A stretch of DNA of 15,256 nucleotides, taken from a virus. Lineage: Duplodnaviria; Heunggongvirae; Uroviricota; Caudoviricetes. The DNA lies in IMG/VR virus record IMGVR_UViG_2526164646_000014; one strand, given 5' to 3'. Below are positions 1 to 11,203 of the stretch, piece after piece. The notes beneath the pieces are model-generated. The model saw only the letters and a list, made by a program, of their open reading frames with translations. It was not told the DNA's origin and made no database searches. The position numbers and the translations under genes are program-made. Every line of letters starts with the position of its first letter. Position 1 is the stretch's first letter.

Positions 1-48
1 TTATACCCCGCAGGGGTCATAACATGCTTGACAACTTAATAGGGGCAC

Positions 49-738
49 GTTACTCTCCGGACTCCGCACCGCCGTGTTCTTCGGTTCAAGTCCCAACATC
101 CGGGCGAACTGGCGTGTTTCATTAGCCCGGTAGCATGAACCATTATCCGTCAGCCACTCCACTGGAGACGACGGAAGATCGTTGCCGAAGCGGCGTTCCA
201 CCGCTCCCAGCATGACGTCCTGTACTGTTTCACTGTTGAAGCCGCCGGTAGTCACCGCCCAGTGCAGTGCCTCACGATCACAGCAGTCCAGCGCGAACGT
301 GACACGCAGTCTCTCTCCGTTATCACAGCAGAACTCGAACCCGTCAGAGCACCATCGCTGATTGCTTTCTTTCACGGCCACTCTGCCTGTATGTGCCCGT
401 TTCGATGGCGGTACAGCAGGTTTTCGCTCAAGCAACAGCGCATTCTGGCGCATGAGCCGGTAAACACGTTTGGCATTGATCGCAGGCATACCATCAAGTT
501 CTGCCTGTCTGCGAAGCAGCGCCCATACCCGACGATAACCATACGTGGGCAGCTCTCCGATAACATGGTGTATACGGAGAAGCACATCCGTATCATCAGT
601 GTGACGACTGCGGCGGCCATCCATCCAGTCATCGGTTCGTCTGAGAATGACGTGCAACTGCGCACGCGACACCCGGAGACAACGGCTGACTAAGCTTACT
701 CCCCATCCCCGGGCAATAAGGGCGCGTGCGCTATCCAC
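49..738 (-). pseudogene. insD: IS2 orfB transposase InsD, 3'-truncated (about 230 of about 301 aa retained)
   Basis: Translation [14 protein letters not shown]...[10 protein letters not shown] then diverges ([15 protein letters not shown]-stop); the C-terminal part of the DDE domain is missing. Confidence 0.8.
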
Positions 739-1899: not shown

Positions 1900-2646
1900 A
1901 TGAAAAATATTGCGACAGGAGGCGTTCTGGAGCGTATCCGCAGACTGACCCCACCACATGTAACCGCCCCATTCAGAACGGTTGCGGAGTGGCGCGAGTG
2001 GCAACTTGCTGAAGGCCAGAAACGTTGCGAGGAGATCAACCGCCTGAATCGTCAGTTGCGGGTGGAAAAAATCCTGAACCGCTCCGGCATCCAGCCGTTG
2101 CACCGGAAGTGTTCGTTTGCGAATTACCGGGCGCAGAACGACGGTCAGCGACATGCACTGAGTCAGGCGAAATCCATAGCTGACGAACTGATGACAGGCT
2201 GTACGAATTTTGTGTTCAGCGGTAAGCCCGGCACCGGAAAAAATCATCTTGCAGCCGCGATTGGCAACCGGCTGATGGCGAAGGGGCGTAGCGTGATTAT
2301 CGTCACCGTGTCCGATGTCATGAGCGTGTTGCATGAGAGCTACGACAACGGCAAATCCGGTGAAAAATTTTTACAGGAGCTTTGTGGTGTTGACCTGCTG
2401 GTCCTGGATGAAATTGGCATGCAGCGGGATACGAAAAACGAGCAGGTGGTACTGAACCAGATTGTTGATCGCCGGACGGCATCGTTACGCGGTGTGGGGA
2501 TGCTGACAAATATTAACCATGCAGCGATGAATACACTTCTCGGCGAGCGGGTGATGGATCGCATGGTCATGAACGGCGGGCGCTGGGTTAATTTTAACTG
2601 GGAGAGCTGGCGTCCGAATGTTAGCCATTCGAGGGTTGTTAAGTAG
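1900..2646 (+). CDS. DnaC-like helicase loader / replication ATPase (AAA+)
   Basis: Walker A FSGKPGTGKNHLAAA and Walker B DLLVLDEIG in the translation; ATG at 1900 follows the upstream stop at 1891..1893; resembles Rac YdaV from memory. Confidence 0.85.
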   Translation: MKNIATGGVLERIRRLTPPHVTAPFRTVAEWREWQLAEGQKRCEEINRLNRQLRVEKILNRSGIQPLHRKCSFANYRAQNDGQRHALSQAKSIADELMTGCTNFVFSGKPGTGKNHLAAAIGNRLMAKGRSVIIVTVSDVMSVLHESYDNGKSGEKFLQELCGVDLLVLDEIGMQRDTKNEQVVLNQIVDRRTASLRGVGMLTNINHAAMNTLLGERVMDRMVMNGGRWVNFNWESWRPNVSHSRVVK

Positions 2647-2660
2647 TTTCAGGAGGATTT

Positions 2661-3083
2661 ATGGCGAAACCTTTTACTCCCGAACAGCGGGAAGAACTGA
2701 AGACGCGAATTGTGGAACTCGTGCATCAGGACGGTCGGGTCACGATTCGGCAGTTGTCCGATGAAACAGGTATCAGTCGTGCGTCTGTCGGTCGCTTATG
2801 CATAGAACTGGTCGCAAGTGGTGATGTATATAATTCTGGCTACGGCTTATTCCCGTCTGAACAGGCTCGCAAGGACTGGCAAAGCGCCCGCAAAAAACTC
2901 TCGAGAGTAAAGGTGAGGAAACCGGTTGTTGTTGATCCGGACCTTATCTGGTCATTACCTGACGGAGAAATACGCCGCTACGACAGGCGCCTGAATATAA
3001 TCTGTCGCGAGTGCCGGAAGAGCGAAGCTATGCAGCGTGTACTGGCTTTCTATCAGGGTAATTTTCAGGAGGCGATACTGTGA
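2661..3083 (+). CDS. Hypothetical phage protein, possible winged-helix DNA-binding fold
   Basis: 140-aa ORF with AGGAGG Shine-Dalgarno at 2651..2656; HTH-like stretch VTIRQLSDETGISRASVGRL. Confidence 0.6.
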   Translation: MAKPFTPEQREELKTRIVELVHQDGRVTIRQLSDETGISRASVGRLCIELVASGDVYNSGYGLFPSEQARKDWQSARKKLSRVKVRKPVVVDPDLIWSLPDGEIRRYDRRLNIICRECRKSEAMQRVLAFYQGNFQEAIL

Positions 3084-3497
3084 ATGAAATTAGCTATCAG
3101 GCTTCAATTACCGCTGGCATTCGCATCAAAGGAGAGGAGCATGGAAATAAAACCAGAAGATGAGTTAAGCAATATCGTTTTATTTCCGATAAAAGAGGAT
3201 GACCCTCGTAATCAGGTTAATTTTCTTTATAAGCCATCGGAAAGACCATATTGCCATCACGCCTCTGTACGGGTTGACGAAAAAGAGCGTCAGGTCCGCT
3301 GTAAAATCTGCGGTGCGGTTGTGGAGCCGTTTGACTGGATGCTCTCTGTGGCAAAAAGAGAAACCAGACTGGCAGATGATGTAAGGCTATTGCGCCAGGA
3401 GGAACAGGAAAGGCGGAGAAATATAGAAAAGCTGATACAGATTGAGCGTAACGCGAAAGCGCGGATACGCAGGGCGACAAAATCCAGAACTGAATAA
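3084..3497 (+). CDS. Hypothetical phage protein with C-HH...C-x2-C zinc-ribbon-like motif (alternative start 3141)
   Basis: ATG 3084 abuts the upstream stop (TGAATG); internal ATG 3141 has a stronger SD (ggagaggag, 3131..3139). C-terminal half is coiled-coil-like and basic. Confidence 0.55.
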   Translation: MKLAIRLQLPLAFASKERSMEIKPEDELSNIVLFPIKEDDPRNQVNFLYKPSERPYCHHASVRVDEKERQVRCKICGAVVEPFDWMLSVAKRETRLADDVRLLRQEEQERRRNIEKLIQIERNAKARIRRATKSRTE

Positions 3498-3808
3498 TTA
3501 AATTTAGCACTGTTAAAAATTTAATCCTTAACCGGAGGGATTTCTGCACCCTCAAATCATCAGGAGACCGCCCGAAAGGGCGGTAATGAATGGTTACATT
3601 ATTTAGAAAAAATATCCGCGAAAGAGTAGAACAACAGAATTCCTGTTTCTCATTCTGTTTATCGTGTTGATGACACCGATATCCCCGCAAATTTTTGTCT
3701 GGATAATCGGAAAAATAATTGAGCCAGTTATTGAATTGTATAACGACGTGGTATGGGCGTCATTCAACACACTGCACAATAAAATTAATCCGTATAAGGA
3801 AAGCTGAT

Positions 3809-4174
3809 ATGGCACTGACGAAAAAACAACGTGCAGAACTGCGCATGAAGTTCGGTGGTCGCTGCGCTTATTGCGGCTGCGAACTTGGCGAAAAGTGGCA
3901 TGCAGACCATGTAAAACCGGTCATTCGTTTTGATGGAAATATGCTTCACCAGGAACGTGACGATATATCCAACATGGTACCAGAATGCCACCCATGCAAT
4001 CTGCACAAGCATTGCAGTAGCCTGGAAGATTATCGACGAATTATCAGTGATGGTCGTCGTGAATTCCTTGCGTCCGGGAAAGGCAAAGCGCTGGTTCGTA
4101 TGGGATTGGTTGAAATGAAATCTGACCCGGTTGTGTTCTGGTTTGAAAAATATCAAGAAGGGGCTACGGCATGA
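3809..4174 (+). CDS. HNH endonuclease
   Basis: HNH signature in translation: CAYCGCEL...HADHVKP...NMVPECHPCNLHK; SD aagga at 3796..3800; the track ORF from 3719 is a 5' over-extension. Confidence 0.8.
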   Translation: MALTKKQRAELRMKFGGRCAYCGCELGEKWHADHVKPVIRFDGNMLHQERDDISNMVPECHPCNLHKHCSSLEDYRRIISDGRREFLASGKGKALVRMGLVEMKSDPVVFWFEKYQEGATA

Positions 4175-4836
4175 CTACTATTACCAAAGAGCGACTGCAA
4201 TGGCTGGCTAACATTTCTGGCCGCGATGATATTGACGATATAGACGGCGGTGAAATTCGTGAACTGGCGCTTATCGCTCTGGCATCACTGGAAGCAGAGC
4301 CTGTAGCGGAATGCATTGTTGAAGATGGGGGCATGTGTATTGACGGGTTCGGTGAGTATGTGGGTCACTCGCTGCCTGATGGAATGCATGAGCTTTATGC
4401 TGCCCCGCGAATGCGACAACCTGATGGATGGAAAGCCGTAGCTGTAGCGTGGAAGGTGACGTTTACTCAAGTTGACCAGGAATCTAATACGTTCACTGCT
4501 ATATATTTTTACAAAGCGGAAGTTGAGCGTTGGGTACGACTGCATAAAGCATGTGATTTTCGGGCAGATATAACACCGCTTTACGCAGCGCCGGCAGTGC
4601 CGGTTGCAGTAAACGACGACATGGCTTACGCATTCCATCACGCACTGTCAGATTCATCGCTTGGCTCTGATGAAATCGAAGAAATTAAAACCGGTTTGCG
4701 TGCTGCCTTTGCCAACGTCACTATCCAACCAGAGCCGATAGTGCCGGATGAAATCGGGCCAAACGATAGTAATACGTTTGATTATGTTGATGGCTGGAAC
4801 GCCTGCCGCGCTGCCATGCTTAAGGGAGATAAATAA
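4171..4836 (+). CDS. Hypothetical phage protein (acidic, 221 aa)
   Basis: ATGA overlap with the HNH stop (4171..4174) indicates translational coupling; no motif recognised. Confidence 0.55.
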   Translation: MTTITKERLQWLANISGRDDIDDIDGGEIRELALIALASLEAEPVAECIVEDGGMCIDGFGEYVGHSLPDGMHELYAAPRMRQPDGWKAVAVAWKVTFTQVDQESNTFTAIYFYKAEVERWVRLHKACDFRADITPLYAAPAVPVAVNDDMAYAFHHALSDSSLGSDEIEEIKTGLRAAFANVTIQPEPIVPDEIGPNDSNTFDYVDGWNACRAAMLKGDK

Positions 4837-5201
4837 TGATTAATCGAACCAAACTGGAGCACATTCTCGAATATGCCAGGCAGCAGAAATGTATTGGGCA
4901 ACTTTGTAAAATTCCACCAGGAGATATGGTTGAAATCGTGGAAATGGCCATGCGTAAGGCTGGCAACTCTCCGGTAACTCTGGCTGGCTGGATAAGCTGT
5001 AGTGATGCAGTTCCTGCTGAATATTGCGATGTGATTCTTCTCGATGATCTCGGGAATGTATTCCCCGGTTCCTGGGATAAGGTTTTTTGCCCCACTCGTG
5101 GCGGGAATAAGATGGCTTTTGTGGACAAAGACGGCGTTGAAGTAGAGAGCTCAACTCACTGGATGCCGCTACCGGAACCACCGCAGGAGGTGAATCAATG
5201 A
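4836..5201 (+). CDS. DUF551-like phage protein
   Basis: TAATG overlap with the upstream gene; C-terminal ...STHWMPLPEPPQ resembles the DUF551 signature recalled from lambdoid nin regions. Confidence 0.6.
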   Translation: MINRTKLEHILEYARQQKCIGQLCKIPPGDMVEIVEMAMRKAGNSPVTLAGWISCSDAVPAEYCDVILLDDLGNVFPGSWDKVFCPTRGGNKMAFVDKDGVEVESSTHWMPLPEPPQEVNQ

Positions 5202-5281
5202 CCTGGCCTGAGGCATTCACCACGGTAGGAATTGCGATGGCGGTGGCGCTGGTGGTGTATTCGATTTGCCGTTGGGGTTAA
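5198..5281 (+). CDS. 27-aa small hydrophobic peptide (single predicted transmembrane helix)
   Basis: ATG 5198 overlaps the upstream stop (ATGA); AGGAGG at 5185..5190 with 7-nt spacing; MTWPEAFTTVGIAMAVALVVYSICRWG; intrinsic terminator follows. Too short for the supplied ORF track. Confidence 0.5.
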   Translation: MTWPEAFTTVGIAMAVALVVYSICRWG

Positions 5282-5288
5282 CAAACAA

Positions 5289-5318
5289 AAACCCCGGATT
5301 GATGGTCCGGGGTTTTTG
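5289..5318 (+). terminator. Rho-independent terminator
   Basis: Stem acccccgga / tccgggg(t) at 5292..5299 and 5306..5313 followed by TTTTT. Confidence 0.8.
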
Positions 5319-5655
5319 AAGGAAACAAAACAGAAACAGCAATTGCCGTTACCTGTTGTTACCATGGCAAGTAAACGTATCTCAGGCGAGCGCATTGCGC
5401 CGTTCTGACGCAGATAAATTAGCCTGGATAGAAGGTGCTGGCAATAAAAAATAGCGTTTTCTTATCGGTATCGGTAAGATTGCTGCGGGTGCTTGAGGCT
5501 GTCTGCCTCGGGCATGCCACTGTAAGGCAGACAGAGAAAAGCCCCAGTTAACATTACGCGTCCTGCAAGACGCTTAACATTAATCTGAGGCCCAATCTAT
5601 GTCTCACAAATGTAGGTTAGCCTCTTACGTGCCGAAAGGCAAGGAGAAGCAGGCT

Positions 5656-5811
5656 ATGAAGCAGCAAAAGGCGATGTTAATCGCCCTGATCGTCATCTGT
5701 TTAACCGTCATAGTGACGGCACTGGTAACGAGGAAAGACCTCTGCGAGGTACGAATCCGAACCGGCCAGACGGAGGTCGCTGTCTTCACAGCTTACGAAC
5801 CTGAGGAGTAA
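5656..5811 (+). CDS. hokD: Hok/Gef-family type I toxin (51 aa), HokD/RelF-like
   Basis: MKQQKAMLIALIVICLTVIVTALVTRKDLCEVRIRTGQTEVAVFTAYEPEE matches the Hok architecture (TM helix then conserved C..R..G..EVA.F.AYE); SD aaggag at 5641..5646, 9 nt before the ATG. The track ORF from 5599 is an in-frame 5' extension. Confidence 0.85.
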   Translation: MKQQKAMLIALIVICLTVIVTALVTRKDLCEVRIRTGQTEVAVFTAYEPEE

Positions 5812-5880
5812 GAGACCAGGCGGGGGAGAAATCCCTCGCCACCTCTCATGTGTCAGGCATCCTCAACGCACCCGCACTAA

Positions 5881-5902
5881 ACCCGCTTTGGCGGGTTTTT
5901 TG
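5881..5902 (+). terminator. Rho-independent terminator downstream of hok
   Basis: cccgc-tttg-gcggg hairpin (5883..5895) followed by a T6 tract. Confidence 0.75.
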
Positions 5903-6046
5903 TTGCGTGCTGAATACGCAGGGTGAAAAATAACCATATATTTGATTATATACACAACAAAAATAAAAGTCATTGTACTTGCACATTAAACAATCAAATA
6001 TACGGCGTGAAATAAATATTTATCAGATTAATATTTTTGTCTCTAT

Positions 6047-6298
6047 GTGGATATAACCGTTTGTACTTATAAACCTGGGGGCATCGTGGAAAAAATAAAG
6101 AAACTATTTAGTAGCAAATACGCAGTCATACGTCGTGATGACCTGTCAGTTATAGTCGAAATGGATTACTTCCCTGAAACCCCAAAATCAATAATGTATC
6201 GTAATGGTCGAAAGGCAATTTTTTTACCGATGAGGGTAAGTGACATTATGGGAAATGATAAACTGCTGGATGAATTGCGAGTCAGAGCATCCTGTTAG
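6047..6298 (+). CDS. rem: Rem-like small prophage protein (83 aa)
   Basis: ORF with GTG start and no clear SD; position right after hok matches the Qin prophage order hokD-rem-ydfU in E. coli K-12 (recalled). Start uncertain. Confidence 0.45.
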   Translation: MDITVCTYKPGGIVEKIKKLFSSKYAVIRRDDLSVIVEMDYFPETPKSIMYRNGRKAIFLPMRVSDIMGNDKLLDELRVRASC

Positions 6299-6315
6299 TA
6301 GGTAATGACTCCAAC

Positions 6316-6819
6316 TTACTGATAGTGTTTTATGTTCAGATAATGCCCGATGACCTTGTCATGCAGCTCCACCGATTTTGAGAACGACAGTGACTTCCGT
6401 ACCAGCCTTGCCAGATGTTGTCTCAGATTCAGATTATGTCGCTCAATGCGCTGAGTGTAACGCTTGCTGATAACGTGCAGCTTTCCCTTCAGGCGTGATT
6501 CATACAGCGGCCAGCCATCCGTCATCCATACCACGACCTCAAAGGCCGACAGCAGGCTCAGAAGACGCTCCAGTGTGGCCAGAGTGCGTTCACCGAAGAC
6601 GTGCGCCACAACCGTCCTCCGTATCCTGTCATACGCGTAAAACAGCCAGCGCTGACGTGATTTAGCACCGACGTAGCCCCAATGTTCGTCCATTTCAGCG
6701 CAGACAATCACATCACTGCCCGGTTGTATGCGCGAGGTTACCGACTGCGGCCTGAGTTTTTTAAGTGACGTAAAACCGTGTTGAGGCCAACGCCCATAAT
6801 GCGTGCACTGGCGCGACAT
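6316..6819 (-). CDS. insB: IS1 InsB (fused to InsA by frameshifting to give the transposase)
   Basis: 167-aa ORF overlapping insA in the -1 frame; matches recalled InsB. Confidence 0.9.
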
Positions 6820-7746: not shown

Positions 7747-8036
7747 TGGTGGATTTACGTAAAGCGGCGCGGGGGCAGATGTGCACCGTCAGAATTCCTG
7801 GCTACTGCAATCACAATCCCGAAACTTCTGTGCTGGCGCATTACAGGCTGGCGGGGACGTGCGGAACAGCGACAAAACCACACGATATGCAGGCAGCGAT
7901 TGCCTGTAGCTCATGCCACGATTTAATCGACGGGCGGGTAAAAACCAGCGATTACACCAAAGAAGAATTACGCCTGATGCATGCAGAAGGTGTTTTTCGC
8001 ACACAAGAAATCTGGAGAAAGGAAGGTTATTTATGA
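7746..8036 (+). CDS. DUF1364-like cysteine-rich protein (YbcO-like putative nuclease)
   Basis: 96 aa with cysteines in pairs (C..C, C...C, CSSCHD); TAATG overlap with the upstream gene. Confidence 0.6.
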   Translation: MVDLRKAARGQMCTVRIPGYCNHNPETSVLAHYRLAGTCGTATKPHDMQAAIACSSCHDLIDGRVKTSDYTKEELRLMHAEGVFRTQEIWRKEGYL

Positions 8037-8587
8037 TTTACCCAACAAATACAGGCAAAAGCGGGGAACACCTTCGTCTCACCACGCTGGAAAGTGTCTG
8101 GATTCAGGGAAAACTGCGCATGTGGGGGCGCTGGTCGTATATTGGCGGCGGTAAGACGGGAAATATGTTTAACCAGTTGCTGGCATCCAAAAAATTGACG
8201 AAAACAGCCGTCAATGAAGCCCTGCGCAGGATGAAAAAAGCGGGAATAGAGAAACCTGAGCTGGAAGCGTTTTTGCGAGAGATGATCAATGGCAAGCAAA
8301 AGACCTGGCTGGCGCATTGTACTGATGCAGAGGCGTTATGTATTGATAGAGTCATAAGTGAGGTGCTGGCAGAGCATCCTGGATTGATTAGTGTCCTCCG
8401 GCAACGGTATGAAGGGCGGGGGATGACTAAGCGTAAAATGGCTGAATTGCTGAATGACGCACACCCTGAGTGGTGTTTCCGGACGTGCTGCAGTCGGGTA
8501 GATGTATGGCTAAATCTTGCTGAATATATGCTCTATCTACCGATGCGTGATGCATTCTCTTCCGGGGATCTAAAAACCGTTTGTTGA
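8033..8587 (+). CDS. Late-gene antiterminator Q-like protein (184 aa)
   Basis: ATGA overlap with the upstream gene; SD aaggaagg upstream of 8033; stop codon embedded in a strong promoter followed by a short leader and intrinsic terminator (the Q-qut-pR'-tR' arrangement). Track ORF from 7913 is an overlapping 5' extension. Confidence 0.6.
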   Translation: MIYPTNTGKSGEHLRLTTLESVWIQGKLRMWGRWSYIGGGKTGNMFNQLLASKKLTKTAVNEALRRMKKAGIEKPELEAFLREMINGKQKTWLAHCTDAEALCIDRVISEVLAEHPGLISVLRQRYEGRGMTKRKMAELLNDAHPEWCFRTCCSRVDVWLNLAEYMLYLPMRDAFSSGDLKTVC

Positions 8588-8613
8588 CTCAATCTGTTAT
8601 CCGGGGCTATATT
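8584..8613 (+). promoter_or_regulatory. pR'-like late promoter (TTGACT-18 bp-TATATT)
   Basis: -35 TTGACT at 8584..8589 and -10 TATATT at 8608..8613, immediately after Q. Confidence 0.5.
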
Positions 8614-8674
8614 CCTCACGCGCCAGCAAAATCTGGCGTCGGGATTGGCGTCCCGGATGTTTACGGAGCGATAT

Positions 8675-8697
8675 GAGACGCGCCCGCGTCTTTTTTC
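8675..8697 (+). terminator. tR'-like intrinsic terminator
   Basis: gacgc-gccc-gcgtc hairpin (8677..8690) followed by TTTTTT (8691..8696). Confidence 0.75.
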
Positions 8698-8974
8698 ATA
8701 TCGTTTGCACAGTCACATTCGCGATTTATGGCGGGCTGTGTGGGGGAGCCGAAAGGCTCGCCGGTTTCCGTACCCGGTTACGCCAACCCTGCACAGTTCG
8801 CCACCAGTTCGATTGGCGTCGTCGGTGGCGATAATTTCCAAATGTACGGAGTTATCGTTATGACCACTCAAATCTCTGTTGAAACTCTCTCCCCGATCAC
8901 CCATAACCAGTGAGGTAGCCTGAGTTTAACGGACACTCCTTCCTGAAATAGAATGGCATCAGAAGGAGCTAATA

Positions 8975-9277
8975 ATGAGCAGAAAAACCCAACGTTACTC
9001 TAAAGAGTTCAAAGCCGAAGCTGTCAGAACGGTTCTTGAAAATCAACTTTCGATCAGTGAAGGCGCTTCCCGATTATCCCTTCCTGAAGACACTTTAGGA
9101 CAATGGGTTACCGCCGCCAGAAAAGGGCTCGGTACTCCTGGTTCCCGCACGGTGGCTGAACTGGAATCTGAAATTCTGCAACTGCGTAAGGCGTTAAATG
9201 AAGCTCGCCTTGAGCGAGATATATTAAAAAAAGCAACAGCGTATTTTGCACAGGAGTCGCTGAAAAATACGCGTTAA
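8975..9277 (+). CDS. IS600 OrfA (HTH plus leucine zipper)
   Basis: MSRKTQRYSKEFKAEAVRTV...LERDILKKATAYFAQESLKNTR. Confidence 0.85.
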   Translation: MSRKTQRYSKEFKAEAVRTVLENQLSISEGASRLSLPEDTLGQWVTAARKGLGTPGSRTVAELESEILQLRKALNEARLERDILKKATAYFAQESLKNTR

Positions 9278-9312
9278 TCGAACAATGGCGACAACAATTT
9301 CCCATTGAAGCG

Positions 9313-10131
9313 ATGTGTCAGGTATTTGGTGTATCCAGGAGCGGTTATTACAACTGGGTACAGCATGAACCCTCAGACAGAAAACAAAGTGATGAGCGGC
9401 TAAAACTGGAGATTAAGGTGGCACATATCCGCACTCGCGAAACATATGGAACCCGGCGGCTCCAGACGGAGCTGGCAGAGAATGGCATCATCGTTGGTCG
9501 TGACCGACTGGCACGTCTTCGTAAGGAGCTGAGGCTACGCTGTAAGCAGAAACGCAAGTTCAGAGCGACTACGAACCCGAACCACAATCTGCCAGTTGCG
9601 CCAAATCTGCTGAACCAGACGTTCGCTCCTACAGCACCAAATCAGGTCTGGGTGGCGGACCTGACGTATGTTGCCACACAGGAGGGATGGTTGTACCTCG
9701 CTGGCATCAAAGATGTTTATACGTGCGAAATTGTCGGCTACGCCATGGGAGAGCGCATGACAAAAGAGCTGACAGGTAAAGCCCTGTTTATGGCGCTCAG
9801 GAGCCAGCGCCCACCTGCCGGGCTAATCCACCACTCTGATCGAGGTTCACAGTACTGCGCATACGATTACCGGGTCATACAGGAGCAGTCTGGTCTGAAA
9901 ACATCAATGTCGCGTAAAGGTAACTGTTACGACAACGCTCCGATGGAAAGCTTCTGGGGAACGCTGAAAAATGAGAGCCTGAGCCACTATCGTTTTAATA
10001 ACCGGGATGAAGCCATCTCAGTAATACGGGAATACATTGAGATTTTCTACAATCGTCAGCGTCGTCACTCTCGTCTGGGGAATATCTCCCCGGCAGCCTT
10101 CAGGGAAAAATATCATCAGATGACTGCTTAA
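9313..10131 (+). CDS. IS600 OrfB (DDE transposase catalytic domain; expressed as OrfAB by -1 frameshift)
   Basis: 272-aa ORF in the -1 frame relative to orfA, with IS3-family DDE-region sequence (WVADLTYV..., HHSDRGSQY). Confidence 0.85.
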   Translation: MCQVFGVSRSGYYNWVQHEPSDRKQSDERLKLEIKVAHIRTRETYGTRRLQTELAENGIIVGRDRLARLRKELRLRCKQKRKFRATTNPNHNLPVAPNLLNQTFAPTAPNQVWVADLTYVATQEGWLYLAGIKDVYTCEIVGYAMGERMTKELTGKALFMALRSQRPPAGLIHHSDRGSQYCAYDYRVIQEQSGLKTSMSRKGNCYDNAPMESFWGTLKNESLSHYRFNNRDEAISVIREYIEIFYNRQRRHSRLGNISPAAFREKYHQMTA

Positions 10132-10779
10132 AAAAAGAACAAATGGTAGTGTCCGCTATTGCCAGTACACCTCACAGATTCCTGTTATTACCACCGAACT
10201 TTTGGCGCAGCTTTACGGCACTGAGCCGGTGCGTATTCGCCAGAATCATCATGAGAACAAAGTACGCTTCGTTGAAGGGAAACACTTTTTCAAAGTTGTT
10301 GGTAATGACCTTAAAGAATTGCGGGTCGCTTTAAACTACTCACAAAATCCAGTTTCACCCAAAGCCCGCTCCCTCATCCTCTGGACAGAACGAGGCGCAG
10401 CACGCCACGGCAAAATGCTCGAAACCGATCAGGCGTGGGATGTGTTCGAAAAACTGGAAGACTGCTATTTCAGTCAAAGGGATCCGTCAACGCCAGTTTC
10501 ATGCCAGAAAAGTTACGACACGCGAGTTCTCTGTTATCAGAGAGGCGGTGTCACTGTTTCCACAATTCAGTTACGGGATGATGATATTGTTATTTCCCTT
10601 GAGTCATGGCTGGAACTGGCGAGAGCCAATGGTTGGTTTGTTGTTCGCAGAGATAAACTGGTGGAAAGGTTGATGCAGCTTTAAAAAAGTTCTTGCATTT
10701 TTGCACATAAACTGCTTCAATTCCGGTAAGCTTCGCAAAGCTGTATCGCGAGGCGAATAGCAGACATGGACACTTGAAA

Positions 10780-10892: not shown

Positions 10893-10969
10893 GGCCCTTT
10901 AGCTCAGTTGGTCAGAGCGAGCGACTCATAATCGCCAGGTCGCTGGTTCAAGTCCAGCAAGGGCCACCA
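10893..10969 (+). tRNA. tRNA-Ile2 (anticodon CAU, lysidine type; formally could be Met)
   Basis: Hand-folded cloverleaf: acceptor GGCCCTT/AAGGGCC, anticodon loop CTCATAA (CAT at 10927..10929), T-loop TTCAAGT, encoded CCA; close to recalled E. coli ileX. Confidence 0.8.
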
Positions 10970-10970
10970 A

Positions 10971-11047
10971 CCACCACTAGCTCATCCGGATAGAGCATCA
11001 ACCTTCTAAGTTGACGGTGCGAGGTTCGAGTCCTCGGTGGTGGGCCA
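10971..11047 (+). tRNA. tRNA-Arg (anticodon UCU)
   Basis: Acceptor CCACCAC/GTGGTGG (unusual C1:G72), anticodon loop CTTCTAA (TCT at 11005..11007), T-arm CGAGG-TTCGAGT-CCTCG, encoded CCA. Confidence 0.75.
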
Positions 11048-11049
11048 GC

Positions 11050-11125
<76 letters not shown>

Positions 11126-11128
11126 TAT

Positions 11129-11203
<75 letters not shown>

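Follow-up and report, generated by a model that had tools for sequence, protein, structure and literature searches.

A string of overlapping genes at positions 3809-5281 of a 15,256-nt stretch of viral DNA (IMG/VR record IMGVR_UViG_2526164646_000014; the whole stretch is referred to here as the window) is very likely a part of a decayed lambda-like prophage in which early accessory genes, most probably of the ordinary exo-xis/nin type, have been shuffled independently of one another, and not a co-operating defence system. We showed that each gene in the string, and each 35-80-residue module of its 221-aa protein, is an independent unit. Recombination swaps these units among prophages, the exchanges falling on gene boundaries and on the conserved linkers EAEPVA, LYAAP, CRAAML and PLPEPPQEV, and the four-gene combination found in the window is one among dozens.

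Layout and prophage setting

Shigella flexneri chromosomes match the window at 99.8-99.96% identity, and insertions of IS1 and IS3-family elements interrupt it. The element that carries the string is a Rac/lambdoid (lambda-like) cryptic prophage of S. flexneri, decayed and riddled with insertion sequences. A DnaC-like ATPase (1900-2646) lies on the replication-gene side of the string and is followed by DUF977 and a zinc-ribbon protein; beyond the string are hok/sok, DUF1367, YbcO, a DUF1133/Q-like gene and tRNAs. The sok RNA that adjoins the string has an Rfam match of 118 bits. The string is part of the early-right (PR-type) operon, with the replication genes on one side and hok/Q on the other, which is also the position of the lambda nin region between the replication genes and Q. 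Like that region (NinG/Rap), it consists of small, tightly packed, overlapping and dispensable genes, and both include a zinc-finger nuclease-like protein.

Four overlapping ORFs on the same strand, forming a single polycistronic string closed by a terminator, had been described in the sequence-only reading, and this layout was confirmed from the sequence. The HNH gene and the gene of the 221-aa protein overlap at ATGA (4171-4174), the latter and the DUF551 gene at TAATG (4834-4838), and the DUF551 gene and the 27-aa ORF at ATGA (5198-5201). A purine-rich Shine-Dalgarno sequence of its own precedes each ORF by 6-9 nt. The four are all real genes; three of them have strong family matches (the HNH protein to phrog_2118 at 4e-55, the 221-aa protein to phrog_60 at 2e-21 and the DUF551 protein to PF04448 at 3e-19), and minus-strand ORFs throughout the region returned no family matches. 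The earlier domain calls (HNH, DUF551 and a small membrane peptide) were correct. Its four-gene extent holds for the ORFs themselves, but the string begins one gene further upstream, with a DUF4014 gene at 3590-3807. Overlapping joints are the rule in this region and are found whatever gene comes next, so they do not mark a functional unit.

The DUF4014 gene (plus strand) is the first of the string and is frameshifted here; in relatives its product is a 72-aa small membrane protein. It matches PF13198 (Pfam) with 56.5 bits in the post-frameshift frame, across profile residues 26-71, and phrog_1832 at 6e-27. Alignment to FDAARGOS_944 placed the break at a 1-base deletion that turns A7 into A6 at 3607-3612. 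Of 37 loci, 36 have A7, while the window has A6; the gene may truly be a pseudogene here, or the missing base may be a sequencing error in the homopolymer. The stop codon (TGA, 3805-3807) is followed by the ATG of the HNH gene 1 nt beyond, and at the same joint unrelated genes are found in Stx phage 933W and phage Bas106. In 933W, the DUF4014 gene is placed between exo and xis, next to orf60a/63/61, and in Stx phage ArgO145 it also belongs to the early-left operon, amid ead/Ea22-like genes. A literature search on DUF4014 returned nothing.

Predicted hairpins stand at both ends of the string. Directly 5' of the DUF4014 start is a GC-rich hairpin with a 7-bp stem and a GAAA loop, without a U-run (3567-3585, plus strand); the 46-nt stretch around it (3555-3600) folds at -19.7 kcal/mol (z = -5.1), and the hairpin sequence is kept in an E. 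coli relative. The string is closed by a bidirectional intrinsic-terminator-like hairpin on both strands (5286-5318), made up of an A-run, a 10-bp GC-rich stem and a U-run. Together with U5 it folds at -23.7 kcal/mol (z = -4.0), with none of 200 shuffles equally stable, and on the minus strand, too, it has the form of a terminator. Where the 27-aa ORF occurs elsewhere, this terminator is swapped for others or missing. A crude consensus scan of 2500-6400, which could miss a weak or non-sigma-70 promoter active in a lysogen, predicted no sigma-70-like promoter on the plus strand. All four ORFs are unbroken in approximately 1000 Shigella contigs despite the decay of the prophage; this could reflect selection, and recent clonal descent explains it equally well.

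The four genes and their relatives

The HNH gene (3809-4174, plus strand) encodes a stand-alone zinc-finger HNH (beta-beta-alpha-Me) endonuclease of 121 aa that belongs to PF01844 (23.3 bits against a cut-off of 21.4). Residues C19, C22, D33, H34, N55, C60, C63, N64 and K67 are invariant among 17 relatives from many genera. When an HNH profile was searched against the PDB, the closest solved structure was 4H9D (2e-6), an HNH protein of Geobacter metallireducens that is 112 aa long and thus similar in size (112-121 aa). The zinc-finger beta-beta-alpha-Me core CxxC...DH...N...CxxCN is common to the window's protein, 4H9D and the small HNHs of the HK97 gp74 type, whereas a distinctive conserved C-terminal tail, PVVFWFEKYQ, sets the window's HNH apart from them. 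Enzymes of the gp74 type adjoin the terminase and help in cos cleavage. Assignment to this terminase-associated type was rejected, as the more intact relative L001 has the HNH gene (10311-10676) approximately 9 kb ahead of the terminase (19262-21362), and the Q gene, tRNAs and lysis cassette separate the two. Assignment to NinG/Rap (PF05766) was also rejected (18.8 bits against a cut-off of 25.4, E = 0.0016); the zinc-finger/HNH segment alone aligns. In a Pectobacterium relative, the protein encoded right after the HNH has an N-terminus that we take, by eye, to be NinG-type zinc-finger-like, which suggests that HNH and NinG may coexist and not substitute for one another. A search of the literature on an HNH in the exo-xis region returned nothing relevant.

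The 221-aa protein (4171-4836, plus strand) is modular and draws on the Ea22-like/DUF551/DUF550 accessory pool. Its modules A (residues 1-46), B (47-82), C (87-136) and D (137-219) are joined by EAEPVA and LYAAP linkers. No Pfam family was matched at E <= 0.1, and PHROG matches are partial and fall module by module (phrog_60, 12449, 5117, 660, 17148 and 3323). Among the best 120 of 3310 matches, only segments of the protein are represented, in varied combinations that are often fused to DUF551 or Ead_Ea22. Single proteins combine modules A and D with DUF551, A and B with other modules, or an Ea22 coiled coil with B and D. The AF2 model has a mean pLDDT of 47.8, with residues 91-138 alone moderately confident, and PDB sequence searches with the 221-aa and DUF551 proteins found nothing.

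Ea22 proteins have been described as mosaics of a common N-terminus and coiled coil with swapped C-terminal domains, including DUF551, and as tetrameric and pro-lysogenic (PMC10834534, PMC7093339). The lambda/Stx exo-xis Ea22 family (IPR025153) likewise comprises early-operon accessory genes of lambdoid phages, and it has in common with the window's protein an extreme mosaicism in which the N-terminal part is shared and small C-terminal domains are exchangeable. Relatives of the 221-aa protein have PF13935 or PF04448 fused to modules B and D. An Ead/Ea22-like (PF13935) identity of the 221-aa protein itself was, however, rejected, since modules B and D alone are shared with PF13935 proteins such as P0094 and P0113. 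Unlike Ea22, the protein has neither the Ead_Ea22 signature nor a predicted long coiled coil, and the window's genes are on the PR side, in the position equivalent to nin, and not between exo and xis.

The DUF551 ORF (4836-5201, plus strand) encodes 121 aa, with a helical N-terminal module at residues 1-45 and the DUF551 domain at 51-117. It belongs to PF04448 (69.9 bits against a cut-off of 22, E = 3.4e-19), with residues 51-117 covering the entire 68-position profile, and it matches phrog_924 at 7e-43. AF2 predicts a small beta-rich fold for the domain (pLDDT ~83), for which a structural search returned no significant neighbours. YfdS of the E. coli K-12 cryptic prophage CPS-53 is also a DUF551 protein (PMC4776307). 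The two have the domain and a location in an early cluster of a cryptic prophage in common, but sharing at the protein level is limited to the domain, and the yfdQRST context (DUF2303 and the HD-domain, DnaA-binding YfdR) is missing here.

The last gene of the string (5198-5281, plus strand) encodes a predicted single-pass membrane peptide of 27 aa, MTWPEAFTTVGIAMAVALVVYSICRWG, in which residues 7-23 form a hydrophobic core (Kyte-Doolittle mean 2.1). Its Shine-Dalgarno sequence, AGGAGG, is strong. Of 5426 complete E. coli genomes, 1290 (24%) have the ORF, and 1285 have it at a minimum of 80% coverage; it is also found in Shigella and Stx phages, yet RefSeq almost never annotates the peptide and has missed it in more than 1000 genomes. 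Contexts were sampled independently of the HNH gene by a degenerate DNA pattern in which residues 14-27 were fixed, so that variation in the C-terminal half is under-sampled. Across 105 distinct contexts, the ORF is intact in 98 and overlaps the upstream ORF by ATGA in 97. In a separate comparison of copies, its codon variants comprised 17 synonymous and 11 nonsynonymous changes. Where the upstream gene differs, blocks of homology start precisely at the ATG of the 27-aa ORF. The HNH gene is found upstream in only 12 of 71 contexts of this HNH-independent sample, and the 27-aa ORF is the last gene ahead of hok in 48 of 86. These sequence comparisons identify the 27-aa ORF as a genuine gene, conserved under purifying selection and largely independent of the HNH gene; it is the only item in the string that is new, and mildly so.

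Searches of the PHROG and PADLOC collections with the peptide gave no match, and its sequence was not found in the literature searched. Membership of Hok/Gef or of another known family of small membrane toxins or peptides was rejected, the nearest matches (Pfam DUF883_C, E = 0.042; NCBIfam KdpF, E = 0.024) being far under the cut-offs. A leader-peptide or attenuation role was rejected as the main explanation, because it is the amino acid sequence that is conserved, and many copies lack the downstream terminator or have another in its place.

Co-inheritance and alternative explanations

The sequence-only reading had proposed that the four genes might form an anti-phage or superinfection-exclusion locus, which was not borne out: the genes are not co-inherited, and the partners of the HNH are not conserved across genera. 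Among the 5426 complete E. coli genomes, searched at a minimum of 80% coverage of each query, the HNH gene was found in 385, the window's alleles of the 221-aa and DUF551 genes in two each, and the whole string in two. Downstream of an HNH gene that is at least 95% identical, 72 loci display 30 different ORF architectures. Across 39 loci from many genera, including Serratia, Yersinia, Pantoea, Edwardsiella, Acinetobacter and Pseudomonas, no conserved partner gene of the HNH was found. In about a quarter of the distant HNH relatives, the next gene belongs to the modular protein family, which leaves room for a loose functional link between the HNH and that family.

As a defence system, the string would comprise the HNH as effector, the 221-aa and DUF551 proteins as sensors or adaptors and the 27-aa peptide as membrane component. 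The prophage accessory region adjoining hok/sok, the presence of a nuclease and a membrane peptide in one operon, the Kiwa and toxin-antitoxin cargo directly downstream in relatives, and the weak matches of the HNH motif to PtuB and PDC-M01B are all in keeping with this idea. We nevertheless consider it very improbable, given the lack of co-inheritance in E. coli genomes, the diversity of downstream architectures, the scarcity of the HNH ahead of the 27-aa ORF, and the location of the string, with no promoter of its own predicted, within a lytic early operon. Scans of every product against PADLOC, NCBIfam, Pfam and PHROG agree with the earlier observation that sensor and ATPase domains are absent. 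The suggested searches against defence models returned weak matches to the HNH motif only: PADLOC has no match for three of the four proteins (best E = 0.034 for the 221-aa protein, none for the DUF551 protein or the 27-aa peptide), and its PtuB model (PDLC00315) aligns at 3.6e-7 with the HNH motif alone, at profile positions 20-88, the alignable region being some 70 residues of a 227-position profile. The NCBIfam retron-HNH model TIGR02646 scored 19.9 against a cut-off of 52.15, and direct PDB sequence searches with the HNH gave marginal PtuB matches (9L7P and 9NNB, E ~0.1-0.4). Assignment to Septu PtuB or a retron-associated HNH was rejected, as neither a PtuA ATPase nor a retron or reverse transcriptase is found among the neighbours. 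The same search recovered a complete Kiwa system in the adjacent interval of the relative L003 (strain CEA224S, 4992-6631; KwaA, 1e-101; KwaB, 1.5e-159), which served as a positive control. The idea of an accessory hotspot thus applies to the neighbouring interval in relatives, where the gap between the 27-aa ORF and hok holds Kiwa, toxin-antitoxin pairs (ParE/RelE-like and Fic/Doc-like) or an antirepressor, but that gap is empty in the window.

Two further explanations assign a role to a single gene. The HNH could be a selfish, free-standing homing endonuclease that has inserted between the DUF4014 gene and the next gene and spreads through cleavage of HNH-less alleles, its neighbours being bystanders. 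Its presence or absence at a fixed joint 3' of DUF4014, its 95-100% identity in nearly all of 703 E. coli genomes between flanks that vary, the 85-100% protein-level identity of the flanking DUF4014, and the small size of a protein with an intact catalytic core would all fit. The same presence/absence pattern is, however, common to all other genes of the mosaic region and is therefore not specific evidence for homing. The 121-aa protein also has no recognisable extra DNA-binding domain of the sort typical of homing enzymes, no target site was identified, and HNH relatives from distant genera occupy many different contexts, so that we regard homing as unlikely. A slightly better, still doubtful, case can be made for the 27-aa peptide acting alone as a membrane-active phage factor, whether it serves in exclusion, modulates a host membrane protein or is a mildly depolarising toxin similar to those of type I systems. 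It is conserved as a module of its own, which at least three unrelated gene ends precede and at least four different sequences follow; the selection noted above (most replacements are conservative), its single hydrophobic span, its strong ribosome-binding site, its wide distribution and its frequent place just before hok point the same way. Against this, no known family of small proteins resembles it (the KdpF and DUF883_C matches are insignificant), its sequence was not found in the literature searched, and neither an antisense RNA nor a dedicated promoter is evident. It is similarly doubtful, though conceivable, that the peptide is a widespread functional small membrane protein of phages that annotation overlooks and that always ends the variable early string just ahead of the hok/defence-cargo hotspot, with a role of its own, for example in superinfection exclusion or in modulating, early in infection, the membrane potential or a host membrane protein. 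In a weaker variant of this reading, the stand-alone HNH co-operates in a loose way with the modular 'MTTITKE...EAEPVA' proteins, which come next to it in about a quarter of distant genera.

The preferred reading, that the string consists of independently shuffled early accessory genes, agrees better with the other possibility raised at the outset, namely an ordinary nin-region module, with the amendment that these genes are found in the exo-xis region of Stx phages as well. The sequence-only reading had named ubiquity in lambdoid nin regions, together with a known housekeeping function, as counting against a defence locus. This was borne out by half: lambdoid early regions do have the parts everywhere, but their function is not known to be a housekeeping one.

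Proposed function and implications

Under the preferred reading, the string would be transcribed only after induction or infection, through read-through from the early promoter. The stop/start overlaps would permit translational coupling without being necessary for it. By extrapolation from Ea22 and other exo-xis genes, the products may be dispensable modulators of early phage development. The HNH would act alone as a small, metal-dependent enzyme that nicks or cuts DNA, and the modular proteins could serve as oligomeric adaptors whose small binding domains, DUF551 among them, engage partners from the host or the phage; lambda Ea22 has been proposed to work in this way. The 27-aa peptide would insert in the inner membrane. 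The four genes would then not constitute a sensor-effector defence system.

These results leave the current understanding of phage biology unchanged. When genes of a prophage overlap stop-on-start and share a terminator, this by itself is no sign of a multi-component system. In this prophage family, defence cargo has its hotspot in the short stretch that separates the 27-aa ORF from hok. The Ea22/DUF551 pool illustrates shuffling at the level of domains, which proceeds module by module at conserved linkers.

Position and gene content of the string

Over 9-10 kb, the window is 99.8-99.96% identical to Shigella flexneri chromosomes, and its exact proteins can be found in about 1000 Shigella contigs. 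The gene order runs from an IS3-family transposase remnant and a YdaU-like fragment through a DnaC/YdaV-like ATPase (1900-2646), DUF977 (2661-3083) and a zinc-ribbon protein (3084-3497) to the string of small genes described here, which is followed by hok/sok, IS1, DUF1367, YbcO, a DUF1133/Q-like antiterminator (7913-8587), C4/isrK RNAs, an IS3-family element and four tRNAs. Since the prophage is interrupted by IS elements (at the left edge a transposase with an rve domain, 1-738, minus strand; IS1 between hok and DUF1367, 6316-6819, minus strand; and IS3-family orfA/orfB after the Q-like gene, 8975-10131, plus strand), it is defective, as is typical of Shigella. The more intact prophage of E. 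coli FDAARGOS_944 has Rac-type immunity genes upstream and lysis and terminase genes downstream; these flanks and the gene order in the window show that the prophage is a decayed one of the Rac/lambdoid type and that the string takes the nin-equivalent position in its early-right operon. The hok/sok type I toxin-antitoxin locus occupies 5487-5811 (Rfam sok, 118 bits at 5487-5661; Hok ORF ending at 5811), with a terminator at 5879-5898. Downstream of the DUF1133/Q-like gene, the C4 antisense RNA with its a1/b1 targets, isrK (Rfam 52-78 bits for these RNAs) and then the four tRNA genes, together at 8607-8808 and 10893-11200, resemble the antirepressor-control and tRNA island of Stx-like/Gifsy-like prophages.

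The sequence-only reading had described four overlapping ORFs closed by a terminator, and this layout is correct. On the plus strand, the HNH ORF (3809-4174, 121 aa), an unnamed ORF (4171-4836, 221 aa), the DUF551 ORF (4836-5201, 121 aa) and a short ORF (5198-5281, 27 aa) are joined through ATGA, TAATG and ATGA, and each start is preceded by a purine-rich Shine-Dalgarno sequence (AAGGAAAG, AAGGGG, AAGGGAG and AGGAGGT, respectively). Five bases past the last stop lies a terminator-like hairpin (5286-5318; A-run, 10-bp GC stem, U-run) with a folding energy of -23.7 kcal/mol (z = -4.0), which can be read as a terminator from the minus strand too. The ORFs on that strand in this region matched no phage family, and a crude consensus scan of 2500-6400 predicted no sigma-70-like promoter on the plus strand.

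The four-gene extent proved too short, however, as it missed a fifth member: a plus-strand DUF4014 gene (3590-3807) for a 72-aa membrane protein, whose stop lies one base ahead of the HNH ATG. Its frame is broken in the window by one lost A (A6 at 3607-3612 versus A7 in 36 of 37 related loci), while it is intact in 36 of the 37 loci that carry the sequence, other S. flexneri chromosomes included; either the gene is a pseudogene specific to this strain, or the homopolymer run was sequenced wrongly. Between a very stable GC hairpin closed by a GAAA loop (3567-3585) and the DUF4014 start codon lie 4 nt; the hairpin lacks a U-run, the 46-nt stretch around it (3555-3600) folds at -19.7 kcal/mol (z = -5.1), and it could serve in RNA processing, RNA stability or the control of translation. 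The zinc-ribbon protein (137 aa; phrog_1621 at 9.5e-56, with a weak TFIIB zinc-ribbon match) is retained ahead of the string in numerous relatives; in RefSeq and by gene callers its start is placed 19 codons further on, which shortens it to 118 aa.

Families and modularity of the products

Every larger gene of the string can be assigned to a known family with a name, under which RefSeq annotates it. The HNH protein exceeds the Pfam HNH cut-off (23.3 versus 21.4 bits) and matches phrog_2118 at 4e-55, and its nearest solved structure is 4H9D, a 112-aa stand-alone HNH (2e-6). Relatives in Enterobacter, Serratia, Yersinia, Pantoea, Edwardsiella, Pectobacterium, Acinetobacter, Pseudomonas and even Caldisericota MAGs retain CxxC...DH...N...CxxCN..K and a C-terminal PVVFWFEKYQ tail. 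The DUF551 protein combines a helical N-terminal module with the DUF551 domain (69.9 bits), modelled by AF2 as a small beta-rich fold (pLDDT about 83) for which no significant structural neighbour was found.

The 221-aa protein matched no Pfam family. With 3310 database matches it is nevertheless no orphan; the best 120 of these, compared locally, share segments of the protein and not the whole. Local alignment divides it into modules A (1-46), B (47-82), C (87-136) and D (137-219), bordered by the motifs EAEPVA, LYAAP and CRAAML. Among its relatives, P0095 (264 aa) joins A, D, a linker and DUF551 in a single protein, P0123 joins A, B and other modules, P0094 joins an Ea22 coiled coil with B and D, and P0085 has A and D alone. 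The protein is probably organized as beads on a string, with which the AF2 model agrees (mean pLDDT 47.8; moderate confidence for module C only). A mosaic build of this kind is known from the Ea22 proteins of phage lambda and the Stx phages, which have DUF551 as one interchangeable C-terminal domain (PMC10834534, PMC7093339). In some Shigella records the 221-aa protein goes by the name "valyl-tRNA synthetase", and relatives appear as "dTDP-6-deoxy-L-hexose 3-O-methyltransferase"; both are most likely propagated misannotations, since the profile searches run support neither.

Independent inheritance and a conserved membrane peptide

The four ORFs do not form a unit. By megablast at a minimum of 80% coverage of each query, the HNH gene was found in 385 of 5426 complete E. 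coli genomes and the 27-aa ORF in 1285, while the 221-aa gene, the DUF551 gene and the whole 1.8 kb each occurred in two. Among 72 viral and genomic loci with an HNH at least 95% identical, we observed 30 downstream ORF architectures, most commonly HNH, a 114-aa protein and the 27-aa ORF; the window-type architecture came second and consisted largely of Shigella clones. The ATGA overlap after HNH is retained almost whatever gene comes next, also in other genera, where a methyltransferase, a putative NinG-type zinc-finger protein, an IS element or unrelated genes follow. Clustering the neighbours of HNH relatives in 39 loci revealed no conserved partner. In Stx phage 933W, where DUF4014 lies in the exo-xis region beside orf60a/63/61, and in phage Bas106, unrelated genes follow DUF4014 at the identical 1-nt joint; Stx phage ArgO145 carries a DUF4014-HNH-X-peptide string among ead/Ea22-like genes of the early-left operon. 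Because architectures vary, HNH has no conserved partner and the DUF4014 joint varies in 933W and Bas106, the string genes are drawn from the accessory genes that lambdoid phages share in their early regions and exchange by recombination at gene borders. The overlaps mark such borders and are no evidence of cooperation, and this combination is one mosaic among dozens.

In the Pectobacterium polonicum locus (L028), a distant relative, just downstream of 6001-6375, HNH is followed by an ATGA-overlapping protein with a putative NinG/Rap-type N-terminal zinc finger; if this zinc finger reading holds, HNH and a NinG/Rap-type nuclease coexist there.

The 27-aa ORF, with one hydrophobic span (residues 7-23), is a real gene. 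Fifty-nine instances fall into 18 DNA versions, none of them disrupted; their codon variants are synonymous in 17 cases and nonsynonymous, mostly conservative, in 11, and where the upstream gene differs, DNA homology begins exactly at its ATG and ends at its stop or a few bases beyond. In an HNH-independent sample drawn by a degenerate pattern (105 distinct contexts), 98 copies were intact and 97 had an ATGA overlap onto the upstream ORF. Of 71 contexts in this sample, 12 had HNH upstream, 31 had DUF4014 upstream and 21 had a DUF551 domain directly upstream; hok followed within 1 kb in 48 of 86. At least three unrelated gene ends precede the ORF (...PLPEPPQEVNQ, ...ISVEDILR and ...AERVDRR) and at least four different sequences follow it; the terminator is therefore no part of its module. 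Profile searches (Pfam, PADLOC, PHROG, NCBIfam) gave no family match, the peptide does not occur in the literature searched, and RefSeq leaves it unannotated, the features under the match being the overlapping upstream gene only. In the string, only this conserved but unannotated membrane peptide is mildly new.

Defence signal, cargo and the likely role of the string

The sequence-only reading had raised an anti-phage role for the cassette as one possibility, and the searches speak against it. PADLOC returned only weak HNH-motif matches, to PtuB and PDC-M01B (best 3.6e-7, aligning 70 residues of a profile with 227 positions), and nothing for the 221-aa, DUF551 and 27-aa products; retron-HNH and IscB NCBIfam models scored far under their cut-offs. 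As the sequence-only reading had noted, no ATPase or sensor is present. With genes that are not co-inherited, a true defence system is highly improbable. The accompanying idea of an accessory hotspot holds for the adjoining interval but not for the cassette: E. coli CEA224S carries a complete Kiwa pair as an insertion in precisely the gap that separates the 27-aa ORF from hok (L003 4992-6631), detected by the same PADLOC library (KwaA 1e-101, KwaB 1.5e-159). At this place other relatives, in loci L002 (4210-4721), L110 (about 6053-6772) and L067 (3230-3778), have a toxin-antitoxin pair that looks ParE/RelE-like, a putative Fic/Doc-like pair or a putative antirepressor gene, labels taken from record annotation or reading of the ORFs. 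The interval from the 27-aa ORF, or its terminator, to hok is a cargo hotspot of this prophage family, empty in the window (5319-5486).

The presence/absence pattern of HNH would fit a selfish homing endonuclease, but every gene of the region has the identical pattern, and we consider this explanation unlikely. An autonomous function of the 27-aa peptide, itself compatible with our main explanation, is also unlikely. Quite likely, the genes form an ordinary mosaic accessory string and do not cooperate as a system. Such a string would be transcribed after induction, when transcripts from the early promoter read through into it. HNH alone could nick or cut DNA as a small metal-dependent enzyme, the modular proteins may be Ea22-type adaptors presenting small binding domains, and the 27-aa peptide would insert into the inner membrane. 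All products may be dispensable modulators of early development, as are exo-xis and nin genes.
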